The notes beneath the pieces are model-generated. The model was given only the letters and a program-made list of their open reading frames with translations, was not told where the DNA came from and ran no database searches. From Candidatus Desulfarcum epimagneticum (lineage in GTDB: Bacteria > Desulfobacterota > Desulfobacteria > Desulfobacterales > CR-1): a stretch of 64,000 nt of DNA. Position numbers and translations under genes: made by a program. This document shows, piece after piece, positions 6,745 through 25,250 of this stretch. The stretch is from NCBI GenBank assembly GCA_900659855.1, contig CAACVI010000050.1, forward strand, positions 85,902-149,901. The letters run 5' to 3'. Every line of letters begins with the position of its first letter. Position 1 is the stretch's first letter.

Positions 6745-6746
6745 TT

Positions 6747-6876
6747 TTGATGGCGTCGTAAAAAATCCGATCTACGGCGTTGCGGCGCTTATTTTTAATT
6801 GAGGCATACTACATGTATTGCCTCAATTAAAAATAAGCGCTACGCCTTGTATATCGAACTTTTTACGACGCCGTCC
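6747..6876. repeat. About 130-bp imperfect palindromic intergenic repeat, copy 1 (tolA-tolB spacer)
   Basis: A perfect 22-bp stem (6785-6806 pairs with 6819-6840) flanks the 12-nt loop tactacatgtat, and weaker pairing extends through both arms. A near-identical copy lies at 59854-59984. Confidence 0.8.
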
Positions 6877-6896
6877 ATTTTTGAAAGGGGCTTTTT

Positions 6897-8258: not shown

Positions 8259-8296
8259 GAAAATTAAGGAAAACAAAATAGAGGAGGAAAGGGAAA

Positions 8297-8932: not shown

Positions 8933-8974
8933 TTGATTTGACGCGTTTTCATGTTTTTCAGGCCAAACGCCATG

Positions 8975-9011
8975 ACAGGCGGCGACATTCTTATCGCCGC
9001 CTGTTTTATTT
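8975..9011 (+). terminator. Rho-independent terminator-like hairpin after pal
   Basis: An 11-bp stem (acaggcggcga / tcgccgcctgt) with an 8-nt loop, followed by ttttattt. Confidence 0.55.
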
Positions 9012-9027
9012 GGGGGGGGAATGACGG

Positions 9028-9981: not shown

Positions 9982-9985
9982 CCCC

Positions 9986-10534
9986 ATGAACCCGGACCGG
10001 AATGAGACTGCCCGGGGCCATGACGCCCCGGGGACAGTGAGAATTGTTGGAATCGACCCCGGACTCGCCGCCACAGGGGTGGGCATCGTCCGGGGCTCAG
10101 GCCATCGCATCCAAAGCTGCTCCCACACCTCCATCAGCTCTTCCCCCAAAGACTCCCTTCCGGATCGGCTCAACGTGATTTTTTCGCGCGTCCGGGATAT
10201 CCTGGACGCGGAAAAGCCCCATCTGATGGTCATTGAAGACATATTCTCGAACCGGGCGCACCCCGCTTCGGGGATCACCCTGGGCAAGGTGACCGGCGTC
10301 ATCCTTCTGGCCGGGCGCCGGGCCGGCGTGCCTGTTCTGGAAGTCCCGGCCCGGGAGGCCAAGAAGGTGATCACCGGAAACGGCGCCGCCACCAAGAGCC
10401 AGATGGAGCTTTCGGTCCGGCGCATATTGAGCCTCAAAAAACCCATTCGTCCCCACCACGCCGCGGACGCCATGGGCATGTCCCTCATGGGGTTTTACCG
10501 GTATGGCCCGGCCATCGCTCGCGCGGCGTCCTGA
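9986..10534 (+). CDS. ruvC: Crossover junction endodeoxyribonuclease RuvC
   Basis: It contains RIVGIDPGLAATGVGIV, LMVIEDIF, GNGAATKSQM and HHAADAM. The internal ATG at 9986 (just after the cpoB stop) is preferred to the track start at 9908. Confidence 0.88.
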   Translation: MNPDRNETARGHDAPGTVRIVGIDPGLAATGVGIVRGSGHRIQSCSHTSISSSPKDSLPDRLNVIFSRVRDILDAEKPHLMVIEDIFSNRAHPASGITLGKVTGVILLAGRRAGVPVLEVPAREAKKVITGNGAATKSQMELSVRRILSLKKPIRPHHAADAMGMSLMGFYRYGPAIARAAS

Positions 10535-10584
10535 TCCTGTCCCTCCCTGTTTAACGCTTTTTACCTTCGTCGCCTGTTTTGTCC

Positions 10585-10626
10585 TTGACAGAACAAAATA
10601 ATATCGTTATATTCACATTTAACGAT
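10585..10626 (+). promoter_or_regulatory. Candidate promoter plus dyad operator upstream of the ArsR-family gene
   Basis: TTGACA (10585-10590), a 17-nt spacer, then TATATT (10608-10613). A 7-bp inverted repeat, ATCGTTA (10603-10609) and TAACGAT (10620-10626), straddles the -10 element. Confidence 0.45.
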
Positions 10627-10686
10627 TTACTTTAAAGGAAGGGGCCACCGGGGCGCCTCGAAAACAAGTCAAAAAACGGGAGCGGA

Positions 10687-11034
10687 ATGATGAAGGCGTT
10701 TGTCAGGGTGATGAAGGCGCTGTCGGACCCCAACCGGGTCAAGATGATGAAAATGCTCCAGAGCCGCCCGCTGTGCGTCTGCGAGATCAAAGAGGCGCTG
10801 GGAATCGCCCAGTCCACGGCCAGCAAACATTTAAAAATCCTGGAAGACGCCGATCTGGTCAAAAGCTTTAAAGACGGTTTGTGGGTGAACTATTCCCTTT
10901 CCGACGGGAGCGACTCCCCTTATTCGGCGGGAATGATCGGGAACCTGAAACGCTGGCTGGAAAACGAGCCTGAAATCCGGAAATTGAATGAGACCCTTCC
11001 CGGTATTGACCGTTTCGACATTGTTGGAAAATAA
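10687..11034 (+). CDS. ArsR/SmtB-family transcriptional regulator
   Basis: 115 aa with LSDPNRVKMMKML and a winged HTH region (CVCEIKEALGIAQSTASKHLKILEDADLV). Confidence 0.88.
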   Translation: MMKAFVRVMKALSDPNRVKMMKMLQSRPLCVCEIKEALGIAQSTASKHLKILEDADLVKSFKDGLWVNYSLSDGSDSPYSAGMIGNLKRWLENEPEIRKLNETLPGIDRFDIVGK

Positions 11035-11119
11035 CCCGGAAAAAAATTTTCGCCGCTATATCGTTAAACGGCCATATATACATATAACCATATATATAAC
11101 AGGACAAAGGAGAAAGTCG

Positions 11120-12187
11120 ATGGGCGCTCAAACCGCTTTTTCCCGCCGCATGGGGGAGAGACAATATTTGGCGATGGGGTTGTATGGGATGACGGGGGCC
11201 TTGTGCGTGTGGCTCTGGTGGATGATCTACCACCGGCTGCCGGACCTGTCCCGATGGATGTCCTACGATCTGCTGCCGCTTGAGCCGGGATCCCGCCTGG
11301 GGGATTCCGTGGAGTTTTTTTTGTATGACACCCCGAAGGTCATGATGCTTCTGGTTCTGGTGGTGTTCGGCGTGGGCGTCATCCGGAGTTTTTTCACCCC
11401 GGAGAAAACCCGGGCCTTTCTGTCCGGCAAAAGCGAATTCGCCGGAAACGTCCTGGCCGCGCTTTTGGGGATCGTGACCCCGTTTTGCTCCTGCTCGGCG
11501 GTGCCGCTGTTCATCGGGTTTGTCGCGGCGGGCGTGCCTTTGGGCGTGACCTTTTCTTTTCTGATCGCCGCGCCCATGGTCAATGAGGTGGCCCTGGGGC
11601 TTTTGTACGGCCTTTTGGGATGGAAGGTGGCGGCCATCTACATGGGAACCGGCCTGTTTATCGCCATCGCCGCGGGCTGGACCATTGGCCGCTTAAAACT
11701 TGAAAACCATGTGGAAGACTGGGTGAGTCAGACAAACGCGTCGTCGGCGGCTGTGGAAGAGGAAAAGATGACCTGGCGCGACCGCGTGGGTTACGGATGG
11801 GACGCCGTCAAAGAGATTGTGGGCCGGGTGTGGGTGTTTGTGATCATAGGTATCGCCGCGGGGGCCGGGATCCACGGGTTTGTCCCCGAGGGCGTCATGG
11901 CCGCGATCATGGGCAAGGGGGTCTGGTGGTCGGTCCCCCTGTCGGTTCTCATCGGGATTCCCATGTATTCCAACGCGGCCGGGATCATCCCGGTGGTGGA
12001 GGCGCTTTTGGGAAAAGGCGCGGCGCTGGGCTCAGTCCTGGCTTTTATGATGAGCGTCATCGCCCTGTCTTTCCCCGAGATGGTGATTTTAAGAAAAGTG
12101 TTAAAACCCAGGCTCATCGGCGCCTTTGTGGGCGTGGTGGCCGGCGGGATACTGATGGTGGGGTATTTATTTAACCTGATTTTTTGA
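11120..12187 (+). CDS. Polytopic permease (UPF0718 / ArsP-like family)
   Basis: The start is an internal ATG with the RBS aggagaaagtcg. The protein has many TM segments and the family-typical VTPFCSCSAVPLFIGF motif. This family is frequently found next to the small thioredoxin-like gene that follows. Confidence 0.8.
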   Translation: MGAQTAFSRRMGERQYLAMGLYGMTGALCVWLWWMIYHRLPDLSRWMSYDLLPLEPGSRLGDSVEFFLYDTPKVMMLLVLVVFGVGVIRSFFTPEKTRAFLSGKSEFAGNVLAALLGIVTPFCSCSAVPLFIGFVAAGVPLGVTFSFLIAAPMVNEVALGLLYGLLGWKVAAIYMGTGLFIAIAAGWTIGRLKLENHVEDWVSQTNASSAAVEEEKMTWRDRVGYGWDAVKEIVGRVWVFVIIGIAAGAGIHGFVPEGVMAAIMGKGVWWSVPLSVLIGIPMYSNAAGIIPVVEALLGKGAALGSVLAFMMSVIALSFPEMVILRKVLKPRLIGAFVGVVAGGILMVGYLFNLIF

Positions 12188-12199
12188 AAGGAGGTCGGC

Positions 12200-12433
12200 A
12201 TGGAGATCAAAGTGATGGGGCCGGGCTGCGCCCGATGCGAAAAGGCCGAAAAGGTTGTCCGGGAAGCGGTTGATGAAACCGGCGCGGACGCGACGGTGAA
12301 AAAAGTGACCGATATGATGGAGATCGCCTCATGCGGCGTTTTGGGAACGCCGGCGGTCCTGGTGGACGGAGAGGTCAAGTGCGCGGGAAAGGTTCCCAAA
12401 AAGGCGGATGTCAAAAAATGGCTGAAAGGTTGA
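12200..12433 (+). CDS. Small thioredoxin-fold protein (redox-active disulfide protein 2-like)
   Basis: 77 aa with an N-terminal GPGCARCE redox motif and a GTPAVLVDGE strand. Confidence 0.8.
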   Translation: MEIKVMGPGCARCEKAEKVVREAVDETGADATVKKVTDMMEIASCGVLGTPAVLVDGEVKCAGKVPKKADVKKWLKG

Positions 12434-12437
12434 GGAG

Positions 12438-13157
12438 GTGATGATGGAGTGGAACGGAGGCAGGGCGGGCGCCATAAAAGAAGGATTGAACGCGGGATGG
12501 CCCATCTGCCTGGGGTATCTTCCCATCGGCATGGCCTTCGGGGTTCTGGCGCAGAAGGCGGGGCTGACGACGGTTCAAATCGCCCTGATGTCCATCATGG
12601 TCTTTGCCGGAAGCTCCCAGTTTATCGCGGTCTCCATGCTGGCCGGCGGGGTCTCGGCCTCGGCCATTGTCGCCACCGCCTTTGTGGTCAATTTGCGCCA
12701 TATGCTCATGAGCTCGGCGCTGGCCGTCTATTTGCGGGCCGCCCATCGGGGCCTGCTCGCCCTGTTCGCCTATGGCGTGACGGACGAGAGTTTTGCCGTG
12801 AACATGCCCCGGTTCAAGGCCGGGACCTGGGGCCTGGGAAGGGCGCTGGCGGTAAATCAGTCCGCCAACCTGGTCTGGGTCATCAGCTCCGTGGCGGGCG
12901 GGGTCGGCGGCCGTTTTATCCCCGAAGGGGCGTTCGGCATCGATTATGCCCTCATCGCCATGTTCATCTGCCTGCTCATCTACCAGATCCGGGAATGGAT
13001 TCACCTGTTCACGGCCGTGATCGCCGGCCTGACCGCCGTCGGCCTGGCCCTTGTCATTCCAGGCAGCGGCTATATCGTCATCGCCTCCATCCTGGCCGCC
13101 ACCGCAGGGGTCGTGGCTCAACGCAAAATCGCCGGGAGGGAAACGAACAATGGCTGA
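12438..13157 (+). CDS. azlC: AzlC-family branched-chain amino acid exporter subunit
   Basis: 239 aa with LGYLPIGMAFGVLAQKAGL...MSIMVFAGSSQFIAVSML. Confidence 0.85.
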   Translation: MMMEWNGGRAGAIKEGLNAGWPICLGYLPIGMAFGVLAQKAGLTTVQIALMSIMVFAGSSQFIAVSMLAGGVSASAIVATAFVVNLRHMLMSSALAVYLRAAHRGLLALFAYGVTDESFAVNMPRFKAGTWGLGRALAVNQSANLVWVISSVAGGVGGRFIPEGAFGIDYALIAMFICLLIYQIREWIHLFTAVIAGLTAVGLALVIPGSGYIVIASILAATAGVVAQRKIAGRETNNG

Positions 13158-13491
13158 TTATATGGCGCTTCTTTTGGGCATGGGACTGGCGACCTACCTG
13201 CCCCGCTGGCTGCCCCTGCATTATCTTTCCCGGCGCTCCCTTCCGGAGTGGTTTGTCCAGTGGCTTGATCTGATTCCGGCCGCCATTCTCAGCGCCCTGC
13301 TGCTGCCGGCCCTGATTCTTGACGGGGAGCCCAGACACGTGGACCTTTTGCGGCCCGAGCTGTGGGTCGCTTTGCCGACATTCGCGATCGCCTGGCGGAC
13401 GCGGTCCCTGGGCGGAACGGTGGTGGCGGGAATGCTGATGTTCTGGCTGGCGGGAAAGGTGAATCCGGACTGGTTCGCGTGGGTGGGATAA
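13150..13491 (+). CDS. azlD: AzlD-family branched-chain amino acid exporter subunit
   Basis: The internal ATG at 13150 overlaps the azlC end by 8 nt. The product is a small four-TM protein (MADYMALLLGMGLATYLPRWLPL...). Confidence 0.8.
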   Translation: MADYMALLLGMGLATYLPRWLPLHYLSRRSLPEWFVQWLDLIPAAILSALLLPALILDGEPRHVDLLRPELWVALPTFAIAWRTRSLGGTVVAGMLMFWLAGKVNPDWFAWVG

Positions 13492-13554
13492 AAAACAGGT
13501 TGACAACAAAGCGCCGCCCGTGAGACAATGTCTTACAAAAAAGGAGGCGTGGAT

Positions 13555-13773
13555 ATGGAGACCACACTGACGATTCGTCTGTCCGAGGAGATGAAAAAGT
13601 CCCTGAATGATTTGTGTCAATCAGAGAGAAAGGGGCTCAGCGAGCTGGTGAGGGATTCTTTGGAAAACCACCTGGCGGTTAAGCGTTTCAGGCAGCTGCG
13701 CTCAAAATCTTTGCCTTTCGCGGAGGCGTCCGGTTTTCTCACGGACGAAGACGTGTTTGAGGGACTGACGTGA
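13555..13773 (+). CDS. Ribbon-helix-helix-type antitoxin
   Basis: AGGAGG lies 7 nt upstream of the ATG at 13555. The N-terminus reads METTLTIRLSEEMKKSLNDL. The stop overlaps the GTG start of the PIN gene (GTGA). Confidence 0.7.
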   Translation: METTLTIRLSEEMKKSLNDLCQSERKGLSELVRDSLENHLAVKRFRQLRSKSLPFAEASGFLTDEDVFEGLT

Positions 13774-14189
13774 AAATCGTTTTTGACTCAAATGTCTATA
13801 TCGCGGCTTTCGCGACCCATGGGATTTGTCACCTGCTTTTTGAGAGCGGCATACGCGATCATGATGTGTTCTCAAGCGCTTTTATACTGGGCGAAGTCAA
13901 CGCGAAACTGATTGAAAAAATGAAGCTGCCGGCCAAAACAGTTCATGAGATTATGGACTATTTAAGGGCTCAGACGATTGTGAACCGCCCGAAAATTCAA
14001 TTGTCGGGAATATCCAGAGACCCCGATGACGACAATGTGATTTCTCTGGCGGTGGAAGCCGGGGCCGGGCACATCGTCACCGGCGACAAAGACCTTCTGG
14101 ACCTGAAACGATACCCATCCATCCGCATTGTCTCTCCCAGAATGTTTTCTGAAATTTTGAGGTCTCAAGACATTTATCCGGATGAATAA
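13770..14189 (+). CDS. PIN-domain toxin
   Basis: 139 aa with IVFDSNVYIAA and DPDDDNVISLAVEAGAGHIVTGDKDLL (PIN acidic residues). It is coupled to the upstream RHH gene. Confidence 0.8.
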   Translation: MKIVFDSNVYIAAFATHGICHLLFESGIRDHDVFSSAFILGEVNAKLIEKMKLPAKTVHEIMDYLRAQTIVNRPKIQLSGISRDPDDDNVISLAVEAGAGHIVTGDKDLLDLKRYPSIRIVSPRMFSEILRSQDIYPDE

Positions 14190-14206
14190 TGGGAAGGAGG
14201 ATCACA

Positions 14207-15205
14207 ATGACCCCAGCGCCTGAAAAATATACCGTGACCCGCGCGGAACGATATGTGGGATTCGGAGCGCTGCTGGCGCTGGCGGCGATCGCGTTGGGAT
14301 TCTACACCGTTCAATATCGCTTCAACCCGGCGGTGAGCGCCCGCCAGGCGCTGTCGGAATCATCAGTCGCCACAGATTCGTTCTCCCTGGCGGATCTGGC
14401 GCCCGCCGGAATTGAGCCGTTTTCTCCGCCGGAGCGCTTTGGTCCGGATACGCTGTCCGACAAGATCAACGGAAAGGCGGAGCTCTATTTCAGCGCCGGC
14501 TTCCGGTCTCTGAAGACCCAGCGGTTTGCCCTGACCGCTGATCCGGCCCTCTGGTTTGAAATGTTTGTTTACGATATGGGCGCGGCCCGCGACGCTTTTT
14601 CCGTGTTCAGCATGCAGCGCCGGGGCGATCTGGAGCCCGGCGGCCCCACACCGTTTGCCTATGCCACGCCCAATGGCCGTTTTCTGGCGCGCGGTCGCCA
14701 CTACCTGGAGCTGGTGGGCTCTGAAGCGTCGGATTCCCTGATGGCGGCCGCTGACGAAATGGCGGCCGCTTTTGTTGACCGGATCGGCGCGGATGACGCC
14801 AGGGCGCCGGAGCTGGACTTGTTCCCGGAGGACAACCGGACGCCGGGCAGCCTCTCACTGGTGGCCTCCGACGCTTTCGGCATCACGGGGTTCAACCAGG
14901 TGTTCATGGCTCAATACCGGCAAAATGGGGCTGACATGATCGCCTATGTGGCCCGGCGGGAATCGGCCGCGGCGGCGCAACTGACGGCCGAAACCGTTCG
15001 GGACTTTTATCTTGAGTTCGGCGGCGTGTCCCTGGGCGGGCCGGAAGGCGTCGCCGTCATCGATATTCTGGACACCATCGAGGTCGTGCTTCACCAGGGG
15101 AGGCGCGTGATCGGCGCGCATGAGGCGCCGGACAGGGAAACCGCCCTGGCCCTTGTCGAACGAATCCGGAAACGGCTGCGGGAGATCGGTGATGACGGAT
15201 ATTAA
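14207..15205 (+). CDS. Hypothetical signal-anchored protein (one N-terminal TM helix, roughly 300-aa extracytoplasmic domain)
   Basis: The RBS ggaaggagg precedes the ATG at 14207. The TM segment reads YVGFGALLALAAIALGFYTV. I do not recognise the family. The 3' end overlaps the next gene by 14 nt. Confidence 0.6.
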   Translation: MTPAPEKYTVTRAERYVGFGALLALAAIALGFYTVQYRFNPAVSARQALSESSVATDSFSLADLAPAGIEPFSPPERFGPDTLSDKINGKAELYFSAGFRSLKTQRFALTADPALWFEMFVYDMGAARDAFSVFSMQRRGDLEPGGPTPFAYATPNGRFLARGRHYLELVGSEASDSLMAAADEMAAAFVDRIGADDARAPELDLFPEDNRTPGSLSLVASDAFGITGFNQVFMAQYRQNGADMIAYVARRESAAAAQLTAETVRDFYLEFGGVSLGGPEGVAVIDILDTIEVVLHQGRRVIGAHEAPDRETALALVERIRKRLREIGDDGY

Positions 15206-16166
15206 CCGCAGAGAGTTCATTCGCCGCTCGGTCAAAGCCGGGTTGGTTTCGGCGTCCGCGCTGGTCGCGGGATGGGGGCTGCGCGATACGAATCCTCCGG
15301 CGTTGGAGCCGGCCACCGAGGCGCTTGGCGGCATCCCTGATTTTTCTAAAGCGCCCGGCGCAGGTCCGGCCATGGCCATTGGAAAAGGAACGGATCGGGG
15401 CGATTTGGCGCGACGGACCTTAGGGGCCATGGGGGGGATGAGGCGCTTTGTCCAGCCCGGAGATCGGGTGGTGATAAAGGTCAACGCGGCATTTGCCTCA
15501 CCTCCGGCTATTTCGGCCACCTCTCATCCGGACCTGGTCAAAGAGGTGACGCTTGCATGCGTTCAAGCCGGGGCTTCCGATGTGGTGGTCACCGACAACC
15601 CCATACACGATCCGGCCGGCTGTTTTCGGCTCACCGGGATCGGGGCGGCCGCGGAAGAAGCCGGGGGCCGGGTTGTCCTGCCGGCGGCGGACCTGTTTGC
15701 GAATGTCTCCCTGCCCGGGGCCCGGTTGATCAGGGACTGGCCGGTATTGGTCGGACCGCTGGCCAAGGCGGACCGCCTCATCGGTGTGGCGCCGCTCAAG
15801 GATCATCATCGGAGCGGCGCTTCCATGACCATTAAAAACTGGTACGGCCTTCTGGGCGGCCGCAGAAACGTCTTTCATCAGGACATTCACACCATTATCG
15901 CCGAACTGGCGGCCCTGGCGCGCCCGACCCTGGTGATTTTAGACGCCGTGACCACCATGAGGCGAAACGGTCCCACGGGCGGATCGATATCGGACCTGGA
16001 CGACACAAACACGCTTGTGGCCGGCATTGATCCGGTGGCGGTGGACGCTGTCGGCGCCTGGATTTTAGGACGGGAACTGAGTCAGCTCCCCCATCTTCAG
16101 CAGGCGGCGGACGCCGGCCTGGGCGTTCTCGATTACCGAACCCTCAACCCCGTGGATGTCCCATGA
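15192..16166 (+). CDS. Tat-signal DUF362-like protein
   Basis: The N-terminus (MTDINRREFIRRSVKAGLVSASALVAG) is a twin-arginine signal. The body (VVIKVNAAF...PDLVKEV...VVTDNP...KDHHRSG...LVILDAV) resembles DUF362. The stop overlaps the next ATG (ATGA). Confidence 0.7.
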   Translation: MTDINRREFIRRSVKAGLVSASALVAGWGLRDTNPPALEPATEALGGIPDFSKAPGAGPAMAIGKGTDRGDLARRTLGAMGGMRRFVQPGDRVVIKVNAAFASPPAISATSHPDLVKEVTLACVQAGASDVVVTDNPIHDPAGCFRLTGIGAAAEEAGGRVVLPAADLFANVSLPGARLIRDWPVLVGPLAKADRLIGVAPLKDHHRSGASMTIKNWYGLLGGRRNVFHQDIHTIIAELAALARPTLVILDAVTTMRRNGPTGGSISDLDDTNTLVAGIDPVAVDAVGAWILGRELSQLPHLQQAADAGLGVLDYRTLNPVDVP

Positions 16167-18112
16167 GACTTGTCATTGTAAGACGGATTTGCCAGGCGTT
16201 TTTTCTGCTTTTATTGACCGGCAGCTGCCTTGTCACCACCGTCGGCGACCGGTGGCTCCAACTGCGGGGCTGGCCGGTCAGCTGGCTCCTGGAATTGGAC
16301 CCACTGGTGGGACTGGCCACGGTTTTGACCACAGGGCGCCTTTACAAGGGGCTGCTCTGGGGCGCGGCCATCCTGGCGGCCACCGCTTTGCTGGGCCGTT
16401 TTTTTTGCGGATGGCTCTGCCCCCTGGGAACCCTTCAGCAGATGGTCGGCGCATGGGCCGACAAGCGGCGCGGCAGACGGGCGCGGGCCGCGGGACGGCA
16501 ATCCCATCCCGGCCGGCGGATCAAATACCTGCTGCTGATCGGATTGCTGACCATGGCGGCCGCCGAGCTTGCCCGGCCATTTGTGACCATTGCGTCCGCC
16601 GGTGGCTGGATACCGCCCGGCGCGGCCATTCTGGCGGGTCTGGCCCTGATCCGATGGGGGCGGGCGCGAAGGGAAAATCGTTCATGGACCGTGTCCGCCG
16701 GCCGGACCATGGCCGGCGCCGGATGCCTGGTTCTGGTTTTGGGCGTGATGTTCCCGGGACATCGTCTGCTGACAGCGGGGTTGCAGACCGGGCTTTTAGA
16801 TCCCATCCCCCTGGTCTATCGGTCCGTTTCGCTGGCGGCGCTGCCCCTGCTTTCCCCCGGGGCCGGCGCCATTGTCGTGACCGGCGGATTGCTTACCGGC
16901 GGGGTATTTGTTCTGGTTTTGGCCCTTTCGGCCTGGCGTCCCCGGTTTTACTGCCGGTATATCTGTCCGCTGGGGGCCTTGCTGGGGATCACGGCAAAAT
17001 GGTCTTTGTGGCGGATGGGGCGACGGGACACGGGCGGTGATGAATGCGTCGGCTGCGGGCGATGCGATCATCATTGTGAAGGCGCCTGCGCGCCGGCCGA
17101 TCAGATCCGGTGGGCGGAATGCGTGCTGTGTTACAATTGCCGGGACGACTGCCCGGAGCGGATCCTGGGGTATGCGGCGCTGCCTTCGACCACAGGAGAG
17201 ATCGCCGGGCCGGATTTAAACCGCCGGGCTGTGATCGCCGCCGGGGCCTGCGGCGCGCTCCTTCTGCCTTTGGCCCGTTTGGGGGATCCCCTGGGAGTGG
17301 GGTGGCGACCCGACCTGGTTCGACCGCCGGGAGCGTTGACGGAATCTGAATTTTTGAAGCGATGCGTAAAATGCGGGCAATGCGTCCGGGTCTGCCCGAC
17401 CCGTGTGATACAGCCGGCTATGTTTGAGGCGGGCGTGGAAGGCCTCTGGACGCCTTGTCTTGATTTTCGGCTGGGCCTCAGCGGCTGCCGGCACAACTGC
17501 ATCGCCTGCGGTCATGTCTGCCCCACAGCCGCGATCCGTCCTCTTGAGCTGGATGAGCGGATGGGCCGGGGCCGTTTTGCCGAAGCCGGTCCGATCCGGA
17601 TCGGGACCGCGTTTATGGACCGGGGACGCTGTCTGCCCTGGGCCATGGGAACCCCTTGCATCGTTTGCCAGGAGAACTGCCCGGTGAGCCCCAAGGCCAT
17701 CACTACCCGGACCGTATTGGAACCGGTGGCCGGGCTGGATCGGCTGACGGTGAGCCATGTAAGATCCCGGTCCATTCATTTAAACCTGCCCCCGACCCGC
17801 AGACCTTTGGCCGGCGGGGATTATTTTCTGGTCGGACCCGCGGGGCCGAAAAACGCGCTGCGGATCGTCGGTCATCAGGCGGACCAAATTGAGCTGGAAG
17901 GCGCCCCGGATGTGGCCGGGCTCCGGAAGGACGCGTCGGCCGCCGCGCATGTCCGGCTGCAGCAGCCTTTTGTGGACCCCCATCGATGCGTCGGCTGCGG
18001 CGCCTGTCAGCACGAGTGCCCGGCGCGCGGCCGGGCCGCGATTCGTGTGACCGCCGAAAACGAGACACGAAGCCGGGACCATGCCTTGCTGGCCGGCGCC
18101 GGCATTTCATAA
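16163..18112 (+). CDS. Membrane polyferredoxin: NapH-like N-terminal half fused to a NapG/MauM-like C-terminal half
   Basis: 649 aa. The TM half has the motifs RFFCGWLCPLG and RFYCRYICPLGA. An internal RR-containing hydrophobic segment (LNRRAVIAAGACGALLLPLA) is followed by RPPGALTESEFLKRCVKCGQCVRVCP. There are six Cys-cluster motifs in total. Confidence 0.8.
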   Translation: MRLVIVRRICQAFFLLLLTGSCLVTTVGDRWLQLRGWPVSWLLELDPLVGLATVLTTGRLYKGLLWGAAILAATALLGRFFCGWLCPLGTLQQMVGAWADKRRGRRARAAGRQSHPGRRIKYLLLIGLLTMAAAELARPFVTIASAGGWIPPGAAILAGLALIRWGRARRENRSWTVSAGRTMAGAGCLVLVLGVMFPGHRLLTAGLQTGLLDPIPLVYRSVSLAALPLLSPGAGAIVVTGGLLTGGVFVLVLALSAWRPRFYCRYICPLGALLGITAKWSLWRMGRRDTGGDECVGCGRCDHHCEGACAPADQIRWAECVLCYNCRDDCPERILGYAALPSTTGEIAGPDLNRRAVIAAGACGALLLPLARLGDPLGVGWRPDLVRPPGALTESEFLKRCVKCGQCVRVCPTRVIQPAMFEAGVEGLWTPCLDFRLGLSGCRHNCIACGHVCPTAAIRPLELDERMGRGRFAEAGPIRIGTAFMDRGRCLPWAMGTPCIVCQENCPVSPKAITTRTVLEPVAGLDRLTVSHVRSRSIHLNLPPTRRPLAGGDYFLVGPAGPKNALRIVGHQADQIELEGAPDVAGLRKDASAAAHVRLQQPFVDPHRCVGCGACQHECPARGRAAIRVTAENETRSRDHALLAGAGIS

Positions 18113-18149
18113 AAAGACACCGGCATTCCATAAAAAAAGGAGTGGCATT

Positions 18150-19364
18150 ATGAACACGGAAAAATCAGGCATCAAGCGTCGCAGTTTTCTGAAAATTCTG
18201 GGGGCGGCCGGGGTTGGCGGCATGGCCGGTTCCGTCATCAAACCGACTGTCTCCGCCGCCGCGGCAAAGGTGGGCGTCCGGCCTTTTGGCCGTTCCGGCA
18301 TTCAAACGCCGATACTGTCCTTGGGAACCATGTTCGACACCGGCGCCAACCAGCTCCTGCTCCGGCAGGCGGTGAAGTGGGGGGTGACCTATTGGGACAC
18401 CGCCCAGTACTACAACCGGTGGGGCAGTGAGATGGGAATCGGAAAATATCTGGCCAAATATCCGGAAGACCGGAAGAAAATTTTTCTGGTGTCCAAGTCA
18501 CAAAATCGGGATGCGAAAGGCTTGACCGCGGAGCTCAATGACTCCCTGGATAACCTCAAGACGGATTATCTGGATCTGTTTTTCGCGCACGCCGTGTCTG
18601 ACGCCGGGTCGGAATTGACCCCGGAGATCAAAGCCTGGAGCGAAAAAATGAAATCCATGGGAAAGTTCCGTCTGTTTGGATTCAGCGCCCATTCCAATAT
18701 GGCCGAGAACCTGTCCCACGCCGCGACCCTGGGCTGGATCGATGGGATCATGACCACATACAACTATAAAGTCATGGCCACCGATGAGATGAAGCGGGCC
18801 GTCGACGCCTGCCACAAAGCCGGCATCGGGCTGACCGCGATGAAAACACAGGCCTCCTCGGTCTGGTCCCGCGCGGGCTTTGAAAGCGCCGAGAGCCGGT
18901 CCCTGGCCGAACGATTTATAGACAAAGGGATGACAAAGGAGCAGGCGAAACTGCTGGCTGTCTGGACCGACGAGCGGATCGCGTCTGTCTGTTCCCAAAT
19001 GAATACCATGACCATCCTCAAAGCCAATGTCGAAGCCGCGGTGAATCAAAAACGCCTGACCGCTTCGGATCGCCGCTGTTTCGAAGCCGAGGCCCAGGCC
19101 ACCGCCGCCCATTATTGCGCGGGATGCGCCGCCACCTGCCGGTCCGTTCTTTCCGGAGCCGTCCCGGTGGATAAAGTCATGCGATGCCTCATGTATGCCC
19201 GCGGTTACGGCGATCATTTTCGGGCGAGGGTGGAATTTCGAGAAATTCCGGGTTCGGCGCGCGGCCGACTGGCGAGTCTGGATTATTCGGAAGCCGAGCG
19301 CAATTGCCCCCAGAACATGCCCATCGGCCGGCTCATGGCCGAAGCGGCGGCGGAACTCTCTTAA
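18150..19364 (+). CDS. Tat-signal aldo/keto reductase-family protein with a C-terminal Cys-rich extension
   Basis: The internal ATG at 18150 has the RBS aaaggag. The Tat motif reads KRRSFLKILGAAGVGG. The AKR core reads YWDTAQYY...DYLDLFFAH, and the C-terminal extension reads CAGCAATC...CPQNMP. Confidence 0.8.
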   Translation: MNTEKSGIKRRSFLKILGAAGVGGMAGSVIKPTVSAAAAKVGVRPFGRSGIQTPILSLGTMFDTGANQLLLRQAVKWGVTYWDTAQYYNRWGSEMGIGKYLAKYPEDRKKIFLVSKSQNRDAKGLTAELNDSLDNLKTDYLDLFFAHAVSDAGSELTPEIKAWSEKMKSMGKFRLFGFSAHSNMAENLSHAATLGWIDGIMTTYNYKVMATDEMKRAVDACHKAGIGLTAMKTQASSVWSRAGFESAESRSLAERFIDKGMTKEQAKLLAVWTDERIASVCSQMNTMTILKANVEAAVNQKRLTASDRRCFEAEAQATAAHYCAGCAATCRSVLSGAVPVDKVMRCLMYARGYGDHFRARVEFREIPGSARGRLASLDYSEAERNCPQNMPIGRLMAEAAAELS

Positions 19365-19475: not shown

Positions 19476-19794
19476 ATGCTCGCGGATGACAAAAAAATTC
19501 TTGGAGAGGTCTCTCATGGTATTCGACGGCTGTATCCCGATACTCGTGTGTGGGCTTTCGGCTCTCGCGCAAGGGGAGATGCCGCATGGGAGTCTGATTT
19601 TTGATATCCTTTTTGTTTTGCCACAAAAAGACAAGTCGGATGAATCGGCTATAATGGATATTTGTTGGGAAATCGGCTTTGAGAATGATCGAGTCATCAC
19701 TCCCGTGATTCTGGACCGGAAACAGTTTGAGCGTGGTCCGATGTCTGAAAGCGCATTAATTGATAACATCCTGCATGAAGGTGTGGCGGCATGA
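19476..19794 (+). pseudogene. MNT-type nucleotidyltransferase (antitoxin-like) disrupted by a +1 frameshift in a T5 run
   Basis: The frame from ATG 19476 (RBS ggagg) reads MLADDKKILGEVSHGIRRLYPDTRVWAFGSRARGDAAWESDF and stops at 19602-19604. Removing one T from 19596-19600 continues it as DILFVLPQKDK...ILHEGVAA through 19794. Confidence 0.65.
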
Positions 19795-19859: not shown

Positions 19860-19927
19860 ATTAGACCCTCAGTCAACTATTCGAAATTTTCGAATAGTTC
19901 AAAGAGAAGGAAATAGGGAAGTTTCGA

Positions 19928-20074
19928 GGGAACAACGCGTTCAAAGACTGGTCGGGAATATTCAAAAATGACTCCACCCCGGCGTCGGCCATACTCGACC
20001 GCCTTCTGCGTCATGCCGAAACCATACTGATTCAAGGGCAAAGCTTTAGAATGAAAGACAAAATCGAGTCCTGA
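19928..20074 (+). mobile_element. 3' fragment of an IS21-family istB (transposition helper ATPase) gene
   Basis: The translation GNNAFKDWSGIFKNDSTPASAILDRLLRHAETILIQGQSFRMKDKIES* matches the conserved IstB C-terminus (AILDRLLHH...G.SYR). There is no upstream ATPase domain and no istA. Confidence 0.6.
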
Positions 20075-20120: not shown

Positions 20121-20175
20121 AACCGGCGCTTTCAAACCGCTATTTTTTATACATTTTTACGCCACCGCTGACAAT

Positions 20176-20385
20176 ATGGAGACCACACTGACGATCCGTT
20201 TGTCCGAGGAGGTGAAAAAGTCCCCGAATGATCTGTGTCAATCGGAAAGAAAAGGGCTCAGCGAGCTGGTGAGGGATTTGTTTGAAAATTACTTGACGAT
20301 TAAGCGTTTCAGACAGTTGCGCTCAAAATCTTTTCCTTTCGCGGAGACAACCGGTTTTCTCACGCATCAAGACGTTTTTGAGTAA
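20176..20385 (+). CDS. Orphan RHH antitoxin paralogue (second copy of the 13555 gene)
   Basis: 69 aa, METTLTIRLSEEVKKSPNDLCQSERKGLSELVRD..., clearly alignable at the DNA level with 13555-13773. Confidence 0.6.
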   Translation: METTLTIRLSEEVKKSPNDLCQSERKGLSELVRDLFENYLTIKRFRQLRSKSFPFAETTGFLTHQDVFE

Positions 20386-20390
20386 CTGAC

Positions 20391-20453
20391 GTAAAAATCG
20401 GTTTTGACTCAAATGTCTATATAGCGGCTTTCGCGACCCATTGGATTTATCAC
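20391..20453 (+). pseudogene. Remnant of the partner PIN toxin gene (start codon lost, truncated)
   Basis: The region aligns with 13770-13833, but GTG has become GTA and the similarity stops after about 63 nt. Confidence 0.6.
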
Positions 20454-20527: not shown

Positions 20528-20605
20528 TGGCGTCCCCAAGGGGATTTGAACCCCTGTTGCCGGCGTGAAAGGCCGGTGTCCTGGACCAGGCTAGACGATG
20601 GGGAC
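20528..20605 (-). tRNA. tRNA-Glu (anticodon UUC), CCA encoded
   Basis: The minus strand reads GTCCCCATCGTCTAGCCTGGTCCAGGACACCGGCCTTTCACGCCGGCAACAGGGGTTCAAATCCCCTTGGGGACGCCA. It folds as a cloverleaf with the anticodon loop CTTTCAC. Confidence 0.9.
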
Positions 20606-20617
20606 GCGGGATGGAGA

Positions 20618-20693
20618 TGGTGGGCCGTGCTGGGCTCGAACCAGCGACTCTCTGCTTAAAAGGCAGATACTCTACCGACTGAGTTAACGGCCC
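20618..20693 (-). tRNA. tRNA-Lys (anticodon UUU), CCA encoded
   Basis: The minus strand reads GGGCCGTTAACTCAGTCGGTAGAGTATCTGCCTTTTAAGCAGAGAGTCGCTGGTTCGAGCCCAGCACGGCCCACCA, with the anticodon loop CTTTTAA. Confidence 0.9.
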
Positions 20694-20760: not shown

Positions 20761-22209
20761 TTATTTTCTCCAGAATTCCGGGACCAGAAGGATGATCACC
20801 GTGAATATTTCCAGTCGGCCCAGGAGCATGCACCATATCAGGAGATACTTTCCCAACAAGGGCATTTGGGAGTAGTTTTCAACCGGTCCCACCAGACCAA
20901 AGCCCGGGCCGATGTTTCCGATGGCCGAGGCCGCCGCTCCAATGGCGGTCATGAAATCCAGGCCCAGGGCCGCGAGCAGGATGGAGGCCGCCACGAATAT
21001 TCCCACGTAGAGCCCCAAAAAACCCAGAACGCTCTGGATCACATCCTCGGACACCGCCCTTCCGCCGATTTTGATGCGTTTGACCGCCCGGGGATGGATG
21101 GTGGAAAACAGCTCCTTGTAGCAGTATTTCAGGTAGAGCATGATCCTGAGTATTTTCATTCCTCCCCCGGTGGACCCTGCCGAGGCTCCGGCGAACATAC
21201 ACAGCAGGATGATGATCCGGGACATGGCCGGCCATGTTTCGTAATCCGCTGTGGCGAATCCGGTGGTGGTGATGATGGAAATCACCTGGAAGGCCCCCAG
21301 GCGGATGGATTGGCCGATGGACTCGCCCGCGTTTCCGTAAATATTGAGGCTGACGAGGGCCGTGAGGACCAGAACCGCGCGCAGGAAAAATTTGCATTCG
21401 GGGTCCTGCCACAAAGCCAGGGGGCTGCCCTTGAGCATCTGGTAGTGCAGGGAAAAGTTCACCCCGGCCAGAATCATGAAAAGCATGATCACGCAGTCTA
21501 TGTAAACGCTGTCATAGTGGGCGATGGAGGCGTTTTGGGTGGAAAAGCCGCCGGTGGGCATGGTGGTGAAGGCGTGGCACACGGCGTCGAAGGCCCCCAT
21601 TCCGCCGGCCATGAGAAGGAGAGCCTCCCCGACGGTGAAAAGCGCGTACACCTTCCAAAGCGTCATGGCGGTGTCCCGGATATGGGGTTTGAGCTTGTCC
21701 GGGACCGGGGTGGGGACTTCGGCCTTGTACAGCTGCATGCCCCCGACGCCCAGGAAGGGGAGGATGGCCACGGAAAGCACGATGATGCCCATGCCCCCGA
21801 GCCACTGGATAAAGCTTCTCCAGAAAAGCAGCGCCTTTGAAATGGACTGGATGTCGGTGAGGATGGAGGCCCCGGTGGTGGTGAAACCCGACACGGACTC
21901 AAACAGGGCGTCCACAAAGCCGGGGAACTCCCCGGTGAGGTAAAAGGGGAGGGCGCCGAAGAGCCCCACCGCGCTCCAGCCCGCCGCCACGATGGCCATG
22001 CCTTCCCGCTGGCTCATGTAGTCCGTGGGGGGGCTTTTGGAAAAAAGAAACAGAAAGAGACCTGAAAAGACGGTGATGAGCATGGAGATCAGAAGGGGGG
22101 CGGCGTTTTCCTCATGGTAATAAAGCCCGGCCAGGATGGGGAGCGTCATGAGAAAACCCAGGAAAAAAATCAGAACGCCGGTGATGTTGAGCACATAGCG
22201 CCAGCGCAT
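20761..22209 (-). CDS. trkH: Trk-type potassium uptake membrane subunit TrkH
   Basis: 482 aa and polytopic, with repeated selectivity-filter-like motifs (TTTGAS, MPTGGFS, TTTGFA, STGGGM). Confidence 0.9.
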   Translation of the reverse strand: MRWRYVLNITGVLIFFLGFLMTLPILAGLYYHEENAAPLLISMLITVFSGLFLFLFSKSPPTDYMSQREGMAIVAAGWSAVGLFGALPFYLTGEFPGFVDALFESVSGFTTTGASILTDIQSISKALLFWRSFIQWLGGMGIIVLSVAILPFLGVGGMQLYKAEVPTPVPDKLKPHIRDTAMTLWKVYALFTVGEALLLMAGGMGAFDAVCHAFTTMPTGGFSTQNASIAHYDSVYIDCVIMLFMILAGVNFSLHYQMLKGSPLALWQDPECKFFLRAVLVLTALVSLNIYGNAGESIGQSIRLGAFQVISIITTTGFATADYETWPAMSRIIILLCMFAGASAGSTGGGMKILRIMLYLKYCYKELFSTIHPRAVKRIKIGGRAVSEDVIQSVLGFLGLYVGIFVAASILLAALGLDFMTAIGAAASAIGNIGPGFGLVGPVENYSQMPLLGKYLLIWCMLLGRLEIFTVIILLVPEFWRK

Positions 22210-23568
22210 TTAAAAATACTCCAGCTTTACCGACAGGAAGTCTTCGATTTTGGGGATGGCCTGGCGTCGGGCGAAGATGATGATTTTGTCGCCGGGCTCC
22301 ACCGTGTTTCGCCCGTCGGGGATGGTGACGTCATCTCCCCGGATGATGCCCGCGATCAGGGCGCCTTTGGGAATGGAGAGCTTGTTCAGGGGTTTTCCCA
22401 CAATGTCGGATGTCTCAAGGGCCACGGCTTCCATGACCTCGGCCTGGTCCCCGATGATGGACACCGCTGAAATCACCTTGCCTCTTCGGATATGGCCCAA
22501 AATGGAGTTGATGGCGGAAAGCCGGGGGCTGATGACCTGCTCAAGGCCGATGGCCGACATCAGGGGAAAGTAGCTGAACTTGTTTATTTTGGTGATGATT
22601 TTTCGAACCCCCATGCGCTTGGCCAGAAGAGAGGTCAGGATATTGGTCTCCTCCTGGCCGGTGAGGGTGATCACGATGTCCATGTTTCCGGCGTTGACCT
22701 CGTTGAGAAGCGTCTGATCGGAGGCGTCGCCATGAAGGACCACGGTTTTGTCCAGGCTGTCGGCGAGTTTTTCGCACTGCTCCGCGTCTTTGTCGATGAG
22801 TTTGGTCTGGATGGATTTTTTTTCCAGCGAGGCGGCCAGGCGGCCCCCGATCCGGCCTCCCCCCACGATGAGGGCCCGGTTGATGGGCTCCTCCTGTTTT
22901 TTGAAAAACGCCAGGGTCTTTTGCAGGTCGCCGGCCTCGGAGATGAAATACACCAGGTCTTCTTTTTCCAGGGTGTCGTTTCCCCGGGGGATGATCAATT
23001 CCCCGTTTCTCACCACAGCGGCGATCAGGGGCTTGTCCTCATTGACTTTGGAGAGTTTGGAAAGAGGGATTCCGGTCAGCTCGTCGTTCTCCATGTGAAT
23101 GCCCACGAATTTGACCCGACCGTCGGCGAACTCGTTGACATCCACCGCCCCGGGGACGCCCATTAAGTTCTCAATGGTTTTCACCACCTCGATTTCCGGG
23201 CTGATGATGTGGTCGATGTGGGGGGGAAGATCCCGGAAGCTGTCGTGGTACTTGTCAAAGCCCGCCCCGCGCACCCGGGCGATTTTTTTGATGTGGGGGG
23301 CCACGATGCTCGCCATGAGGCTGGCCACGAGATTGGTCTCATCGTGGTTGGTGACCGCCAGGATGATCTCGGCGTTTTTGACTCCGGCCTCCTCCAGAAG
23401 AAGGGGATTGCTCCCTGAGCCGTGGATGGCCTGGACATCGATCCGCTCCGACACCCGGCGCGCCGCCTCCGGGTCGTTGTCAATGACCACCACATCTTTG
23501 TTTTCACGGGACAGGTGGCTGGCGATGTGAAAGCCCACCTCCCCGGCCCCGACAATGATGATTCTCAA
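22210..23568 (-). CDS. trkA: Trk system NAD-binding subunit TrkA (tandem RCK domains)
   Basis: 452 aa with two Rossmann motifs (IIIVGAGEVG and ALIVGGGRIGG) plus RCK_C segments. It starts with TTG. Confidence 0.92.
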   Translation of the reverse strand: MRIIIVGAGEVGFHIASHLSRENKDVVVIDNDPEAARRVSERIDVQAIHGSGSNPLLLEEAGVKNAEIILAVTNHDETNLVASLMASIVAPHIKKIARVRGAGFDKYHDSFRDLPPHIDHIISPEIEVVKTIENLMGVPGAVDVNEFADGRVKFVGIHMENDELTGIPLSKLSKVNEDKPLIAAVVRNGELIIPRGNDTLEKEDLVYFISEAGDLQKTLAFFKKQEEPINRALIVGGGRIGGRLAASLEKKSIQTKLIDKDAEQCEKLADSLDKTVVLHGDASDQTLLNEVNAGNMDIVITLTGQEETNILTSLLAKRMGVRKIITKINKFSYFPLMSAIGLEQVISPRLSAINSILGHIRRGKVISAVSIIGDQAEVMEAVALETSDIVGKPLNKLSIPKGALIAGIIRGDDVTIPDGRNTVEPGDKIIIFARRQAIPKIEDFLSVKLEYF

Positions 23569-23719
23569 TTTGATCCGGCTCCCCGTTTTGGATGTTCAGC
23601 GCCCGGGACGCTTTTTTCGAAAAACACAAACATACCCTTATATCTTATATTTTTCGTCATTGTCAAACACAAGAGGCAAAATATTTTTTTTCGCCGCCGG
23701 CCGTTTCGGGCGCATGGTG

Positions 23720-25232: not shown

Positions 25233-25250
25233 GGGGTGTGGTTTCGGCGT

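Follow-up and report, generated by a model that had tools for sequence, protein, structure and literature searches.

A conserved four-gene cluster of Candidatus Desulfarcum epimagneticum joins a NapH-NapG fusion polyferredoxin to DUF6599, Tat-signal DUF362 and Tat-signal aldo/keto reductase proteins: a candidate periplasm-facing oxidoreductase of nickel-pincer type

What does an aldo/keto reductase (AKR) that carries an export signal do beside a membrane polyferredoxin? The question is raised by four open reading frames (ORFs), g1, g2, g3 and g4, which, as read from the sequence, fill positions 14207-19364 on the + strand of a 64,000-nucleotide stretch of contig CAACVI010000050.1 of Candidatus Desulfarcum epimagneticum (hereafter the window). 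The products of g1 and g2 are 100% identical to proteins annotated for this organism. A sequence-only reading had described them as a single operon for extracytoplasmic or membrane redox proteins and had proposed that the AKR uses an electron route other than free NAD(P)H. The analysis reported here leads to a more specific proposal, to which we give about an even chance: that the four genes encode a periplasm-facing, membrane-bound oxidoreductase complex in which enzymes of nickel-pincer type are wired to the quinone pool. From the evidence set out below we infer complex formation, the identity of the cofactors, coupling to quinones, the type of substrate and the direction of electron flow.

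Several features support the assignment of g1-g4 to one operon. The first two genes overlap by 14 nucleotides and g2 and g3 share an ATGA that holds the g3 start, both as read earlier, and the gap between g3 and g4 is 37 nucleotides, not the 38 then given. Shine-Dalgarno sequences lie 6-8 nucleotides 5' of each of the four starts and orthologues share the same first residues, so that the starts proposed for the genes are correct, also in view of the conserved twin-arginine motifs described below. The G+C content at third codon positions (GC3) is even over g1, g2, g3 and g4 (0.74, 0.71, 0.73, and 0.71). A separate origin of g4 had been suspected from its lower total GC and is ruled out by its equal GC3, which attributes the lower total to amino-acid composition. 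A scan of the consensus terminator type returned 10 terminator-like sites against 9.1 expected in shuffles, no excess over chance.

The four families are also strongly conserved together, their genes keeping one order amid genomic surroundings that have nothing else in common. A scan with a DUF6599 alignment, restricted to one genome per species, recovered relatives of g1 in at least 529 species genomes, mostly of Desulfobacterales and Syntrophobacterales; a small number of the bins carry the label Verrucomicrobiota. Neighbourhoods were counted in the best 80 loci, the denominator of each count being the loci with enough downstream sequence. The g1 gene stands first in every locus and is followed directly by a DUF362 gene (77/77) and then by the polyferredoxin gene (60/60), with an AKR gene after the polyferredoxin in 50 of 55 loci, in most of them immediately. 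The order DUF6599-DUF362-polyferredoxin is constant down to orthologue identities of 35-40%, the flanking genes are wholly different from locus to locus, and even an AKR only 39% identical to g4 leads back to the same four-gene cluster in another context (locus L090). A chance neighbourhood of functionally unlinked genes, or one left by the recent insertion of an island, might be suspected from the position of the cluster between two toxin-antitoxin copies, near an IS21 remnant and two tRNA genes. Such an origin is vanishingly improbable and effectively ruled out by the synteny data, given an order held in hundreds of species at such identities and amid unrelated flanks, tight junctions and uniform GC3.

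Pfam assigns g4 to Aldo_ket_red (E 1.2e-25), the match being limited to profile positions 24-200 of 291. A profile built from 25 g4 orthologues finds its best PDB match in 9YEB (E 1.2e-24, residues 48-321), which is NphT, the founding nickel-pincer-mononucleotide-dependent AKR (Semersky et al., 2026, Nat Chem, June 2026; PMC13524815). In NphT the cofactor is covalently attached through K200 and the nickel is liganded by H144, the AKR catalytic tetrad is kept, and provision of NAD(P)(H) in place of the pincer cofactor gave no products (PMC13524815). HMMER and an independent MAFFT alignment agree in mapping g4 onto NphT, and each of these positions has its counterpart in g4 (Table 1). The g4 tetrad is invariant in 52 orthologues, and equivalents of both H181 and K232 occur in 52/52 orthologues and in 67/68 representatives of a wider Tat-AKR family (Tat, twin-arginine translocation), which was delimited as 163 representative clusters at E <=1e-30 and is represented by 68 full-length sequences clustered at 50% identity. 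The nicotinamide and 2'-phosphate positions of canonical AKRs are, moreover, replaced in g4, by S179-T/A180, by M201 and by I-C281-S-Q where IPKS had stood, and the alignment contains no conserved Arg before N293. The roles of these positions are taken from AKR1B1, in which Asn160 (T/A180 in g4) and Gln183 (M201 in g4) hold the nicotinamide, and the IPKS loop and the Arg before Glu-Asn likewise count among the nicotinamide- and 2'-phosphate-binding positions. The loss of the NAD(P)H residues, together with the presence of the NphT His/Lys pair, supports and refines the earlier suggestion of a different electron route.

Another explanation is that the AKR leaves the cytoplasm with NADP(H) firmly bound and acts, independently of g3, through a ping-pong mechanism; DUF362, PFD (the polyferredoxin family of g3), and DUF6599 would then be a separate system with which it merely shares the operon. 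Tat export with a bound nicotinamide has a precedent in the glucose-fructose oxidoreductase (GFOR) of Zymomonas mobilis, the tetrad of g4 is the canonical one, and the association of AKR and polyferredoxin is not absolute: the AKR is missing in 5/55 loci and sometimes parted from g3 by insertions, and family members without a PFD exist. We nevertheless judge this explanation improbable, on account of the replaced nicotinamide and 2'-phosphate positions, the invariant NphT His/Lys motif, the conserved four-cysteine motif that is fused to the barrel, and the location of the AKR downstream of g3 in 50/55 loci.

In addition to its barrel, g4 carries the two features that had been noticed from the sequence alone, a twin-arginine (RR) signal and a cysteine-rich C-terminal extension, and both prove to be conserved. 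The N-terminus reads KRRSFLK, with R10, R11, and F13 invariant, followed by the hydrophobic stretch ILGAAGVGGMAGSVI. An RR pair with a hydrophobic stretch is present in 55/55 g4 orthologues and in 60/68 full-length representatives of the wider family; the match of g4 to the Pfam TAT_signal model is weak (17.1 bits, under the cut-off of 22.7). Its counterpart in g2, NRREFIRR followed by the mildly hydrophobic AGLVSASALVAGWGL, is present in 78/79 orthologues. This conservation (78/79 and 55/55) places the true starts of both genes 5' of the RR motifs and lends support to their Tat N-termini; motifs, hydropathy and homology together support an exported, periplasmic location predicted for both proteins. 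The cysteines of the g4 tail are shared by 51-52 of 52 orthologues; among the representatives of the wider family the figure is 64-68 of 68, and one distant family member gives weak Fer4 matches in Pfam. On the strength of this motif it is proposed that the tail binds a single iron-sulfur (Fe-S) cluster. g4 resembles NphT (9YEB) in its barrel, its tetrad, its Ni-ligand His, its tether Lys and the hydrophobic residues at the Asn/Gln nicotinamide positions, and differs from it by the Tat signal, by a C-terminal extension of ~110 residues with four Cys, by the extra conserved C221 and C281, and by its setting in a polyferredoxin operon rather than beside larBCE or sugar-catabolic genes, at an overall identity of 23%. 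A second Tat-AKR copy was observed upstream of g1 in loci L005, L015, L025, and L062, and in tandem or inverted after g4 in L051, L068, and L076; extra copies of this kind are what one would expect of a subunit that sets substrate specificity and diversifies, if the AKR plays that part.

The second gene product belongs to DUF362, as had been proposed and as Pfam confirms (E 1.6e-39, 136.5 bits against a gathering threshold of 24). DUF362 is a large family whose members are often fused to ferredoxin domains and, in certain lineages, to carbohydrate-binding and dockerin modules. It is also the most conserved of the four proteins, with 107 positions at least 95% conserved. The AlphaFold2 (AF2) model of g2 (pLDDT 88) finds as its best PDB fold the LarA-family racemase 7s91 (E 3e-5, probability 1.0, TMq 0.50), and the further Foldseek matches 9q3j, 6d6z, 4nar, and 9q3k have probabilities of 0.97-1.0 with TMq of at most 0.50. 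This fold agrees with the placement of DUF362 in Pfam clan CL0471 together with the LarA N-terminal domain (PMC11770544). A resemblance at the level of a motif is also suggestive. g2 contains an invariant H-x9-K-x13-H, namely H205-HRSGASMTI-K215 ... H229, present in 77/77 orthologues, 115/116 database matches and 6/6 DUF362 proteins of loci L085-L090. LarA has H174-FFAGFSGGR-K184 with 15 residues to H200, and one Gly and one Ser between His and Lys are common to both proteins; in LarA the nickel-pincer nucleotide is tethered to K184, H200 is the Ni ligand, and H108 and H174 are the catalytic bases. C123 and C144 of g2 are likewise conserved. With the LarA superfamily (DUF2088; PDB 5HUQ, 7S91, 9Q3J) g2 shares the predicted fold and the Pfam clan, and its His/Lys/His motif is reminiscent of the LarA residues; g2 departs from these enzymes in being ~100 residues shorter (~40-50% covered by TM-score), in carrying a Tat signal, and in having an Fe-S partner and no racemase context.

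The signal region of g2 (residues 1-33) is unusually conserved beyond the arginine pair, at R12, KAG, D32, and P36, and bears a faint similarity to the Tat signal-anchor that bacterial Rieske proteins keep uncleaved (PDB 2yiu/9fks, E 0.78), which is a hint only and the one useful result of sequence and profile searches of the PDB with g2. The protein may, on these sequence features, stay anchored in the membrane. The shorter DUF362 partners of MLMS-1-type PFDs (below), unlike g2, have ordinary-looking cleavable signals.

The third protein, of 649 residues, had been recognized as a membrane polyferredoxin resembling quinol dehydrogenases, and NapH- and NapG-like parts are indeed found in it. 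Pfam places two Fer4_5 (NapH-type) domains and Fer4 domains, and NCBIfam returns partial matches to NapG (E 4e-18) and NapH, with scores of 64-65 bits that are far under the cut-offs of 213-269, as well as to MauM/NapG, NosR, and CcoG, also far under the family cut-offs. There are two CX3CP motifs (C82/C86 and C264/C268), two predicted cytoplasmic four-cysteine motifs within residues 295-330, and four NapG-type four-cysteine motifs at 401-411, 442-453, 490-506, and 609-619; the 28 Cys of these motifs are 100% conserved in 50 orthologues. PFDs are polytopic polyferredoxins, NapH-NapG fusions in which a twin-arginine motif precedes a fifth transmembrane domain (TMD5) of low hydrophobicity, and the NapGH quinol dehydrogenase is their split relative (PMC5449189). 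For the PFD of strain MLMS-1 (Q1NSB0), Tat-dependent translocation of the C-terminal side was demonstrated with reporter fusions (Tooke et al., 2017, eLife; PMC5449189). The g3 family is thus one already studied for its Sec/Tat biogenesis; that study covered biogenesis alone and named no partner, function or DUF362 (PMC5449189). BLASTP aligns g3 residues 36-376 colinearly with Q1NSB0 residues 1-364 (31% identity, E 3e-33), a comparison that covers the first 364 residues of the latter (sequence from the supplement of PMC5449189) and spans both CX3CP motifs, the cytoplasmic Cys motifs, 'GPDLxRR' and TMD5. g3 is also 35% identical to the PFD of Desulfurivibrio alkaliphilus. Its own internal RR pair, R355 of which is at least 95% conserved, precedes the segment VIAAGACGALLLPLAR, with a Kyte-Doolittle value of 1.28 and R372 after it. 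Colinearity with the MLMS-1 protein suggests a topology in which the NapH half and two clusters face the cytoplasm and the NapG half with four clusters is periplasmic, and it is proposed that the last transmembrane domain is Tat-dependent and puts the NapG-like domain in the periplasm. The two proteins share a colinear architecture, and g3 is ~90-130 residues longer, with inserts at ~aa 140-200 and 510-600.

The PFD relatives also reveal which part of the cluster is its core. Five loci of the MLMS-1 PFD subfamily were compared (Desulfurivibrio alkaliphilus, a Dissulfurispiraceae bin, a Nitrospiraceae bin and two further assemblies). A DUF362 gene of ~300 codons lies immediately upstream of the PFD gene on the same strand in 4/5, and in the fifth (L086, Dissulfurispiraceae, 1745-7542) it lies 3.3 kb upstream. 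Over the aligned parts, the five DUF362 proteins share 34-36% of their residues with g2, and each has an RR motif at its N-terminus. All five loci lack DUF6599 and the AKR; since the pair occurs without the other two genes (5/5), Tat-DUF362 and PFD are the conserved core and the AKR is not. Tat-DUF362 plus PFD is thus a widespread two-gene module, of which the cluster in the window is an elaborated version with a PFD ~90-130 residues longer and with DUF6599 and the AKR added. The 3.3 kb of L086 hold two toxin-antitoxin pairs (HigB/HTH_3 and BrnT/CopG) and small enzyme genes, and toxin-antitoxin modules accordingly adjoin the DUF362/PFD module in two unrelated genomes, that one and the present one.

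The existence of this small stand-alone module in varied contexts also bears on a different explanation of the cluster, in which DUF6599, DUF362, and PFD are maturation or maintenance factors in the manner of MauM/MauN, NosR, and CcoG, which would hold some periplasmic enzyme, or the metal cofactor of that enzyme, in a reduced or assembled state. Several relatives of NapH and NapG have such roles, and the partial NCBIfam matches of g3 to MauM/NapG, NosR, and CcoG point the same way. DUF362 is, however, the most conserved of the proteins, its fold is enzyme-like and its His/Lys/His motif looks like part of an active site, and beside the stand-alone pairs there is no obvious client gene. Maturation is, for these reasons, quite unlikely to be the role of the three proteins, and the corollary that their client is the AKR here and some other enzyme in other lineages is no more probable.

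The remaining protein, g1, is named by Pfam as DUF6599 (E 9e-44, 149.7 bits against a gathering threshold of 27). The signal anchor described earlier for it stands, and the description 'unknown family' does not, although no function is assigned to the family; with a DUF as the sole outcome of the profile search, g1 matches no family of known unrelated function. A strongly hydrophobic transmembrane (TM) segment at ~aa 17-35, with basic residues (arginines) ahead of it, suggests from hydropathy that the protein is signal-anchored with its bulk predicted to be periplasmic. Its orthologues have zero conserved Cys and zero invariant His. The AF2 model (pLDDT 88) consists of two tandem alpha+beta repeats, which gave no significant fold match in the PDB by Foldseek; weak low-TM matches (PknH sensor domain, TP0453, TiME, RseB, TBP-like) were discarded and no fold family was assigned. 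Sequence and profile searches of the PDB with g1 gave nothing useful.

Taken together, these features allow a mechanism to be outlined for the proposed complex. g3 would serve as the electron conduit: its membrane-embedded NapH half, which has two CX3CP motifs and, facing the cytoplasm, two [4Fe-4S] sites, would exchange electrons with menaquinone/menaquinol. By virtue of the internal RR pair and the weakly hydrophobic last helix, Tat would carry the NapG-like half, already folded and holding four [4Fe-4S] sites, into the periplasm. g2, with its LarA fold, and g4, of NphT type and with a four-cysteine site of its own, would be the catalytic subunits, folding and taking up their cofactor in the cytoplasm before export by Tat, a route that insertion of the cofactor in the cytoplasm would account for. 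The most likely cofactor of both is a covalently tethered nickel-pincer nucleotide, supplemented in g4 by one Fe-S cluster, and both would dock on the periplasmic NapG-like domain of g3. g1 would be a cofactor-less, non-redox, membrane-anchored accessory subunit of the long PFD variant, maybe a scaffold or substrate-binding protein. A periplasmic alcohol, aldose or 2-hydroxy-acid would thus deliver a hydride to the pincer cofactor, from which electrons would pass one at a time through the Fe-S clusters to menaquinone.

Carbohydrate-type substrates are weakly hinted at from several sides. NphT acts on aldoses (PMC13524815), and DUF362 fusions with CBM9 and dockerin modules have been reported (PMC5742341). 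In locus L091 (4830-8206), a Tat-AKR that is 37% identical to g4 and has the RR motif and the Cys tail is encoded 12 nt after a GH3 glycosidase gene, in the absence of a polyferredoxin and with mandelate-racemase/enolase-family and Ldh_2 genes in the flanks, a sugar-acid dehydratase-family context. This arrangement hints at sugar or sugar-acid substrates and at a PFD-independent use of this type of AKR. The cluster of L090 is adjoined by a GH5 cellulase.

The same parts could also be run in the opposite direction, a NapGH-type menaquinol dehydrogenase supplying electrons to the DUF362 protein and the AKR, which would then reduce a periplasmic substrate, for instance toxic aldehydes, ketones or quinones, damaged parts of the cell envelope or alternative electron acceptors, following the logic of NapGH, NosGH, and MsrPQ. 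AKRs typically reduce carbonyls. NphT, too, reduces aldehydes such as butanal (PMC13524815), g3 matches both NapH and NapG models, and PFD is a NapH-NapG fusion with NapGH as its split relative (PMC5449189). Locus L083, where a methyltransferase and a molybdoenzyme take the place of the AKR after g3, would suit a module that delivers electrons to various partners, although it is a single case, and the sequence gives no directional cue. By textbook potentials, however, menaquinol (~-74 mV) is a poor reductant for carbonyls, the aldehyde/alcohol and keto/hydroxy-acid couples lying at ~-190 to -200 mV. For this reason oxidation of the periplasmic substrate is favoured, and reduction by menaquinol, the chief alternative, appears less likely.

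A number of points weigh against the proposal of a quinone-wired nickel-pincer complex. Among the PDB matches of the g4 profile, the E-value of NphT is only slightly better than that of canonical AKRs (1e-23). NphT itself is cytoplasmic, has no Fe-S domain and carries out redox-neutral hydride shuttling, unlike what is proposed for g4. The report on NphT makes no mention of Tat, periplasm, iron-sulfur, ferredoxin or DUF362 (PMC13524815). For g2, the correspondence with the His/Lys/His of LarA is confined to motif and overall fold; a HMMER profile of the g2 family retrieved no LarA chain from the PDB, and in Pfam at E <=10 g2 matches DUF362 only, with no link to Lar_N/DUF2088. Adjacency to larB/larC/larE was the criterion that uncovered the NphT family (PMC13524815), and none of larB, larC, and larE was found in the Pfam-annotated flanks at 13 loci, nor within the ~30 kb of the window, up to mraZ, that was scanned outside the cluster, a search of flanks and not of whole genomes. 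Some members of the Tat-AKR family (L091 and L092) occur without any PFD. Interaction of g3 with quinone is assumed by analogy with NapH. Finally, we know of no precedent for Fe-S clusters that re-oxidise a pincer cofactor in one-electron steps.

The most far-reaching form of the proposal must be held more tentatively. It states that two structurally unrelated pincer enzymes, a DUF362 protein of LarA fold and an AKR of NphT type, are exported by Tat in holo form and feed a respiratory chain from outside the cytoplasm, which would be categorically new; we consider this possible and rather doubtful. The same doubt attaches to its corollary that DUF362 proteins might form a third nickel-pincer class, that they might be true dehydrogenases, as opposed to racemases or hydride shuttles, and that they might be the missing partner of the Sec/Tat polyferredoxin.

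Comparison with known systems indicates where the novelty would lie. NapGH, and likewise NosGH and MauMN, consist of the same two building blocks as g3, with the same cluster motifs and the same presumed path from quinone to periplasm; NapG and NapH are separate polypeptides, whereas g3 is fused in one ORF. No nap, nos or mau genes occur in the examined flanks, and the partners of the conduit are DUF362, AKR, and DUF6599 proteins in place of cytochromes or molybdoenzymes. MsrPQ and the heme-molybdenum cofactor (Moco) Sec-Tat fusions follow the same logic of a quinone-fed membrane anchor and a Tat-exported cofactor domain (PMC5449189), but employ heme b and Moco as against Fe-S and a putative nickel-pincer nucleotide, and show no sequence relationship. 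Looser parallels exist among periplasmic enzymes of other kinds. Zymomonas mobilis GFOR is exported by Tat with its cofactor bound and acts in the periplasm on sugars/alcohols, and periplasmic sugar/alcohol dehydrogenases that depend on pyrroloquinoline quinone (PQQ) feed the quinone pool; with these the cluster has a functional analogy only, the folds and cofactors being unrelated. The building blocks are thus of known kinds (NapGH-type conduits, AKRs, the LarA clan), and it is their combination that appears undescribed, a Sec/Tat polyferredoxin with Tat-DUF362, extended by DUF6599 and a Tat-exported, Fe-S-tailed AKR of NphT type. Literature searches, full-text ones included, on DUF6599, DUF362, PF04015, and Tat-exported AKRs turned up neither a description of function nor a published account of the cluster, in line with the remark in the sequence-only reading that no described pathway has this composition.

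Should the proposal hold, it would provide the first functional context for DUF362 and DUF6599 and a partner for a polyferredoxin family so far studied just as a model of Sec/Tat co-operation. Before NphT was reported in June 2026, nickel-pincer chemistry was, to our knowledge, confined to LarA racemases of the cytoplasm, and it would be extended to exported, Fe-S-coupled and possibly energy-conserving enzymes. Sulfate reducers, syntrophs and further anaerobes of the sulfur cycle would have an unrecognised entry to, or exit from, the menaquinone pool, the DUF6599-type cluster being carried by at least 529 species, and a Tat signal combined with the His/Lys motif would be a testable rule for discovering more nickel enzymes. 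Even without a pincer cofactor, a strictly conserved four-gene periplasmic redox module is worth study.

Table 1. Positions of the cluster genes, their motifs and neighbouring features in the window, with the g4 residues that align with NphT.
Feature	Position	Strand	Basis or remark
g1, DUF6599 protein, 332 aa	14207..15205	+	Pfam, hydropathy, AF2 model; ATG 14207 with AAGGAGG upstream; stop 15203-15205
g2, Tat-signal DUF362 protein, 324 aa	15192..16166	+	Pfam, RR motif, AF2 fold; ATG 15192 with GGGAG upstream
g1/g2 overlap	15192-15205		
g2 Tat signal region	15192-15290		
g2 twin-arginine codons (R6 R7 in NRREFIRR)	15207..15212	+	sequence; R6/R7 invariant or nearly so
g2/g3 ATGA overlap	16163-16166		
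g3, NapH-NapG fusion polyferredoxin (PFD family), 649 aa	16163..18112	+	Pfam, NCBIfam, BLASTP; stop 18110-18112
g3 internal twin-arginine (R354 R355) and weakly hydrophobic TM segment VIAAGACGALLLPLAR	17222..17275	+	alignment to MLMS-1 PFD RR/TMD5
g3-g4 gap	18113-18149		
g4, Tat-signal AKR of NphT (nickel-pincer) type, 404 aa	18150..19364	+	Pfam, PDB profile match; ATG 18150 with AAAGGAG upstream
g4 twin-arginine codons (R10 R11 in KRRSFLK)	18177..18182	+	sequence; R10/R11/F13 invariant
g4 C-terminal Cys motif (C323-x2-C326-x3-C330 ... C386-P387)	19116..19310	+	conservation
g4 D83/Y88/K116/H147 = NphT D47/Y52/K75/H106, catalytic tetrad			HMMER + MAFFT alignment
g4 S179 = NphT T142, cofactor contact			HMMER + MAFFT alignment
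g4 H181 = NphT H144, Ni ligand			HMMER + MAFFT alignment
g4 M231 = NphT I199, hydrophobic contact to pyridine ring			HMMER + MAFFT alignment
g4 K232 = NphT K200, covalent tether			HMMER + MAFFT alignment
Antitoxin and toxin genes of repeat copy 1	13528-14189		
Direct repeat, copy 1	13553-13832		
Small ORF after g4	19480-19794		no Pfam match; GC3 0.51
Truncated ORF	from 19791		
IS21 IstB ATPase remnant	~19898-20074		Pfam IstB_IS21 positions 193-237 of 238, E 9e-10
Direct repeat, copy 2	20174-20453		
tRNA-Glu(UUC) and tRNA-Lys(UUU)	20528-20693	-	

The insertions between g3 and g4 at some loci (caspase-like, DUF3800, unknowns) are not conserved, and the only recurrent neighbour families among the 80 loci encode signalling proteins. 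A same-strand gene stands directly upstream of DUF6599 in ~11 loci of one subclade (L003 at 6783-7745, L032, L033, L034, L044, L045, L049, L064, L070, L077, and L080), encoding a response-regulator-GGDEF protein (diguanylate cyclase) in L003 and a HAMP histidine kinase in L033, which hints at regulation of the cluster by a signalling pathway or cyclic di-GMP. A frequent antisense 'family' at the loci was dismissed as a shadow ORF. In L083, on the chromosome of a metagenome-assembled genome, the AKR is absent and g3 is followed by a cyclopropane-fatty-acid-synthase-type methyltransferase and a sulfite-oxidase-family molybdoenzyme (14199-16234), which may be an alternative periplasmic partner. 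The clusters of L066, L073, L081, and L061, with ~40% identity to g1, lie in bins labelled Verrucomicrobiota/Limisphaerales and, in one case, Bifidobacteriaceae, and reflect either lateral transfer or binning errors.

The surroundings in Ca. Desulfarcum epimagneticum (953-13491 and 20761-33436) consist of housekeeping genes unrelated to the cluster. The flanks in the window include genes for fumarate reductase/succinate dehydrogenase subunits, Tol-Pal, RuvC, ArsR with an ArsP-type permease, AzlCD, and TrkAH, and for an energy-coupling factor (ECF) biotin transporter with BirA, a GltD-like protein, PyrK-like and PyrD proteins, TatD, and MraZ. Pfam gave no match for a 511-aa ORF at 29974-31509 (- strand) or for the ORFs at 3700-4335 and 8128-8844.

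The cluster itself, in which all four ORFs are intact, is bracketed by a direct repeat of 280 nt with 88% identity between its copies. The first copy corresponds to an intact ribbon-helix-helix (RHH) antitoxin and PIN toxin pair, and the second to a degenerate RHH gene and the start of a PIN gene, with stop codons inside. After g4 come a small ORF, a truncated ORF and a remnant of an IS21 IstB ATPase gene that comprises its final ~45 codons, and two tRNA genes follow right after the second repeat copy, a position that is a typical neighbourhood for island integration. The segment between the repeats looks like the product of an insertion or recombination. The repeats, the IS21 remnant and the tRNA genes, together with the unrelated flanks found elsewhere, suggest that the four genes move as a unit.

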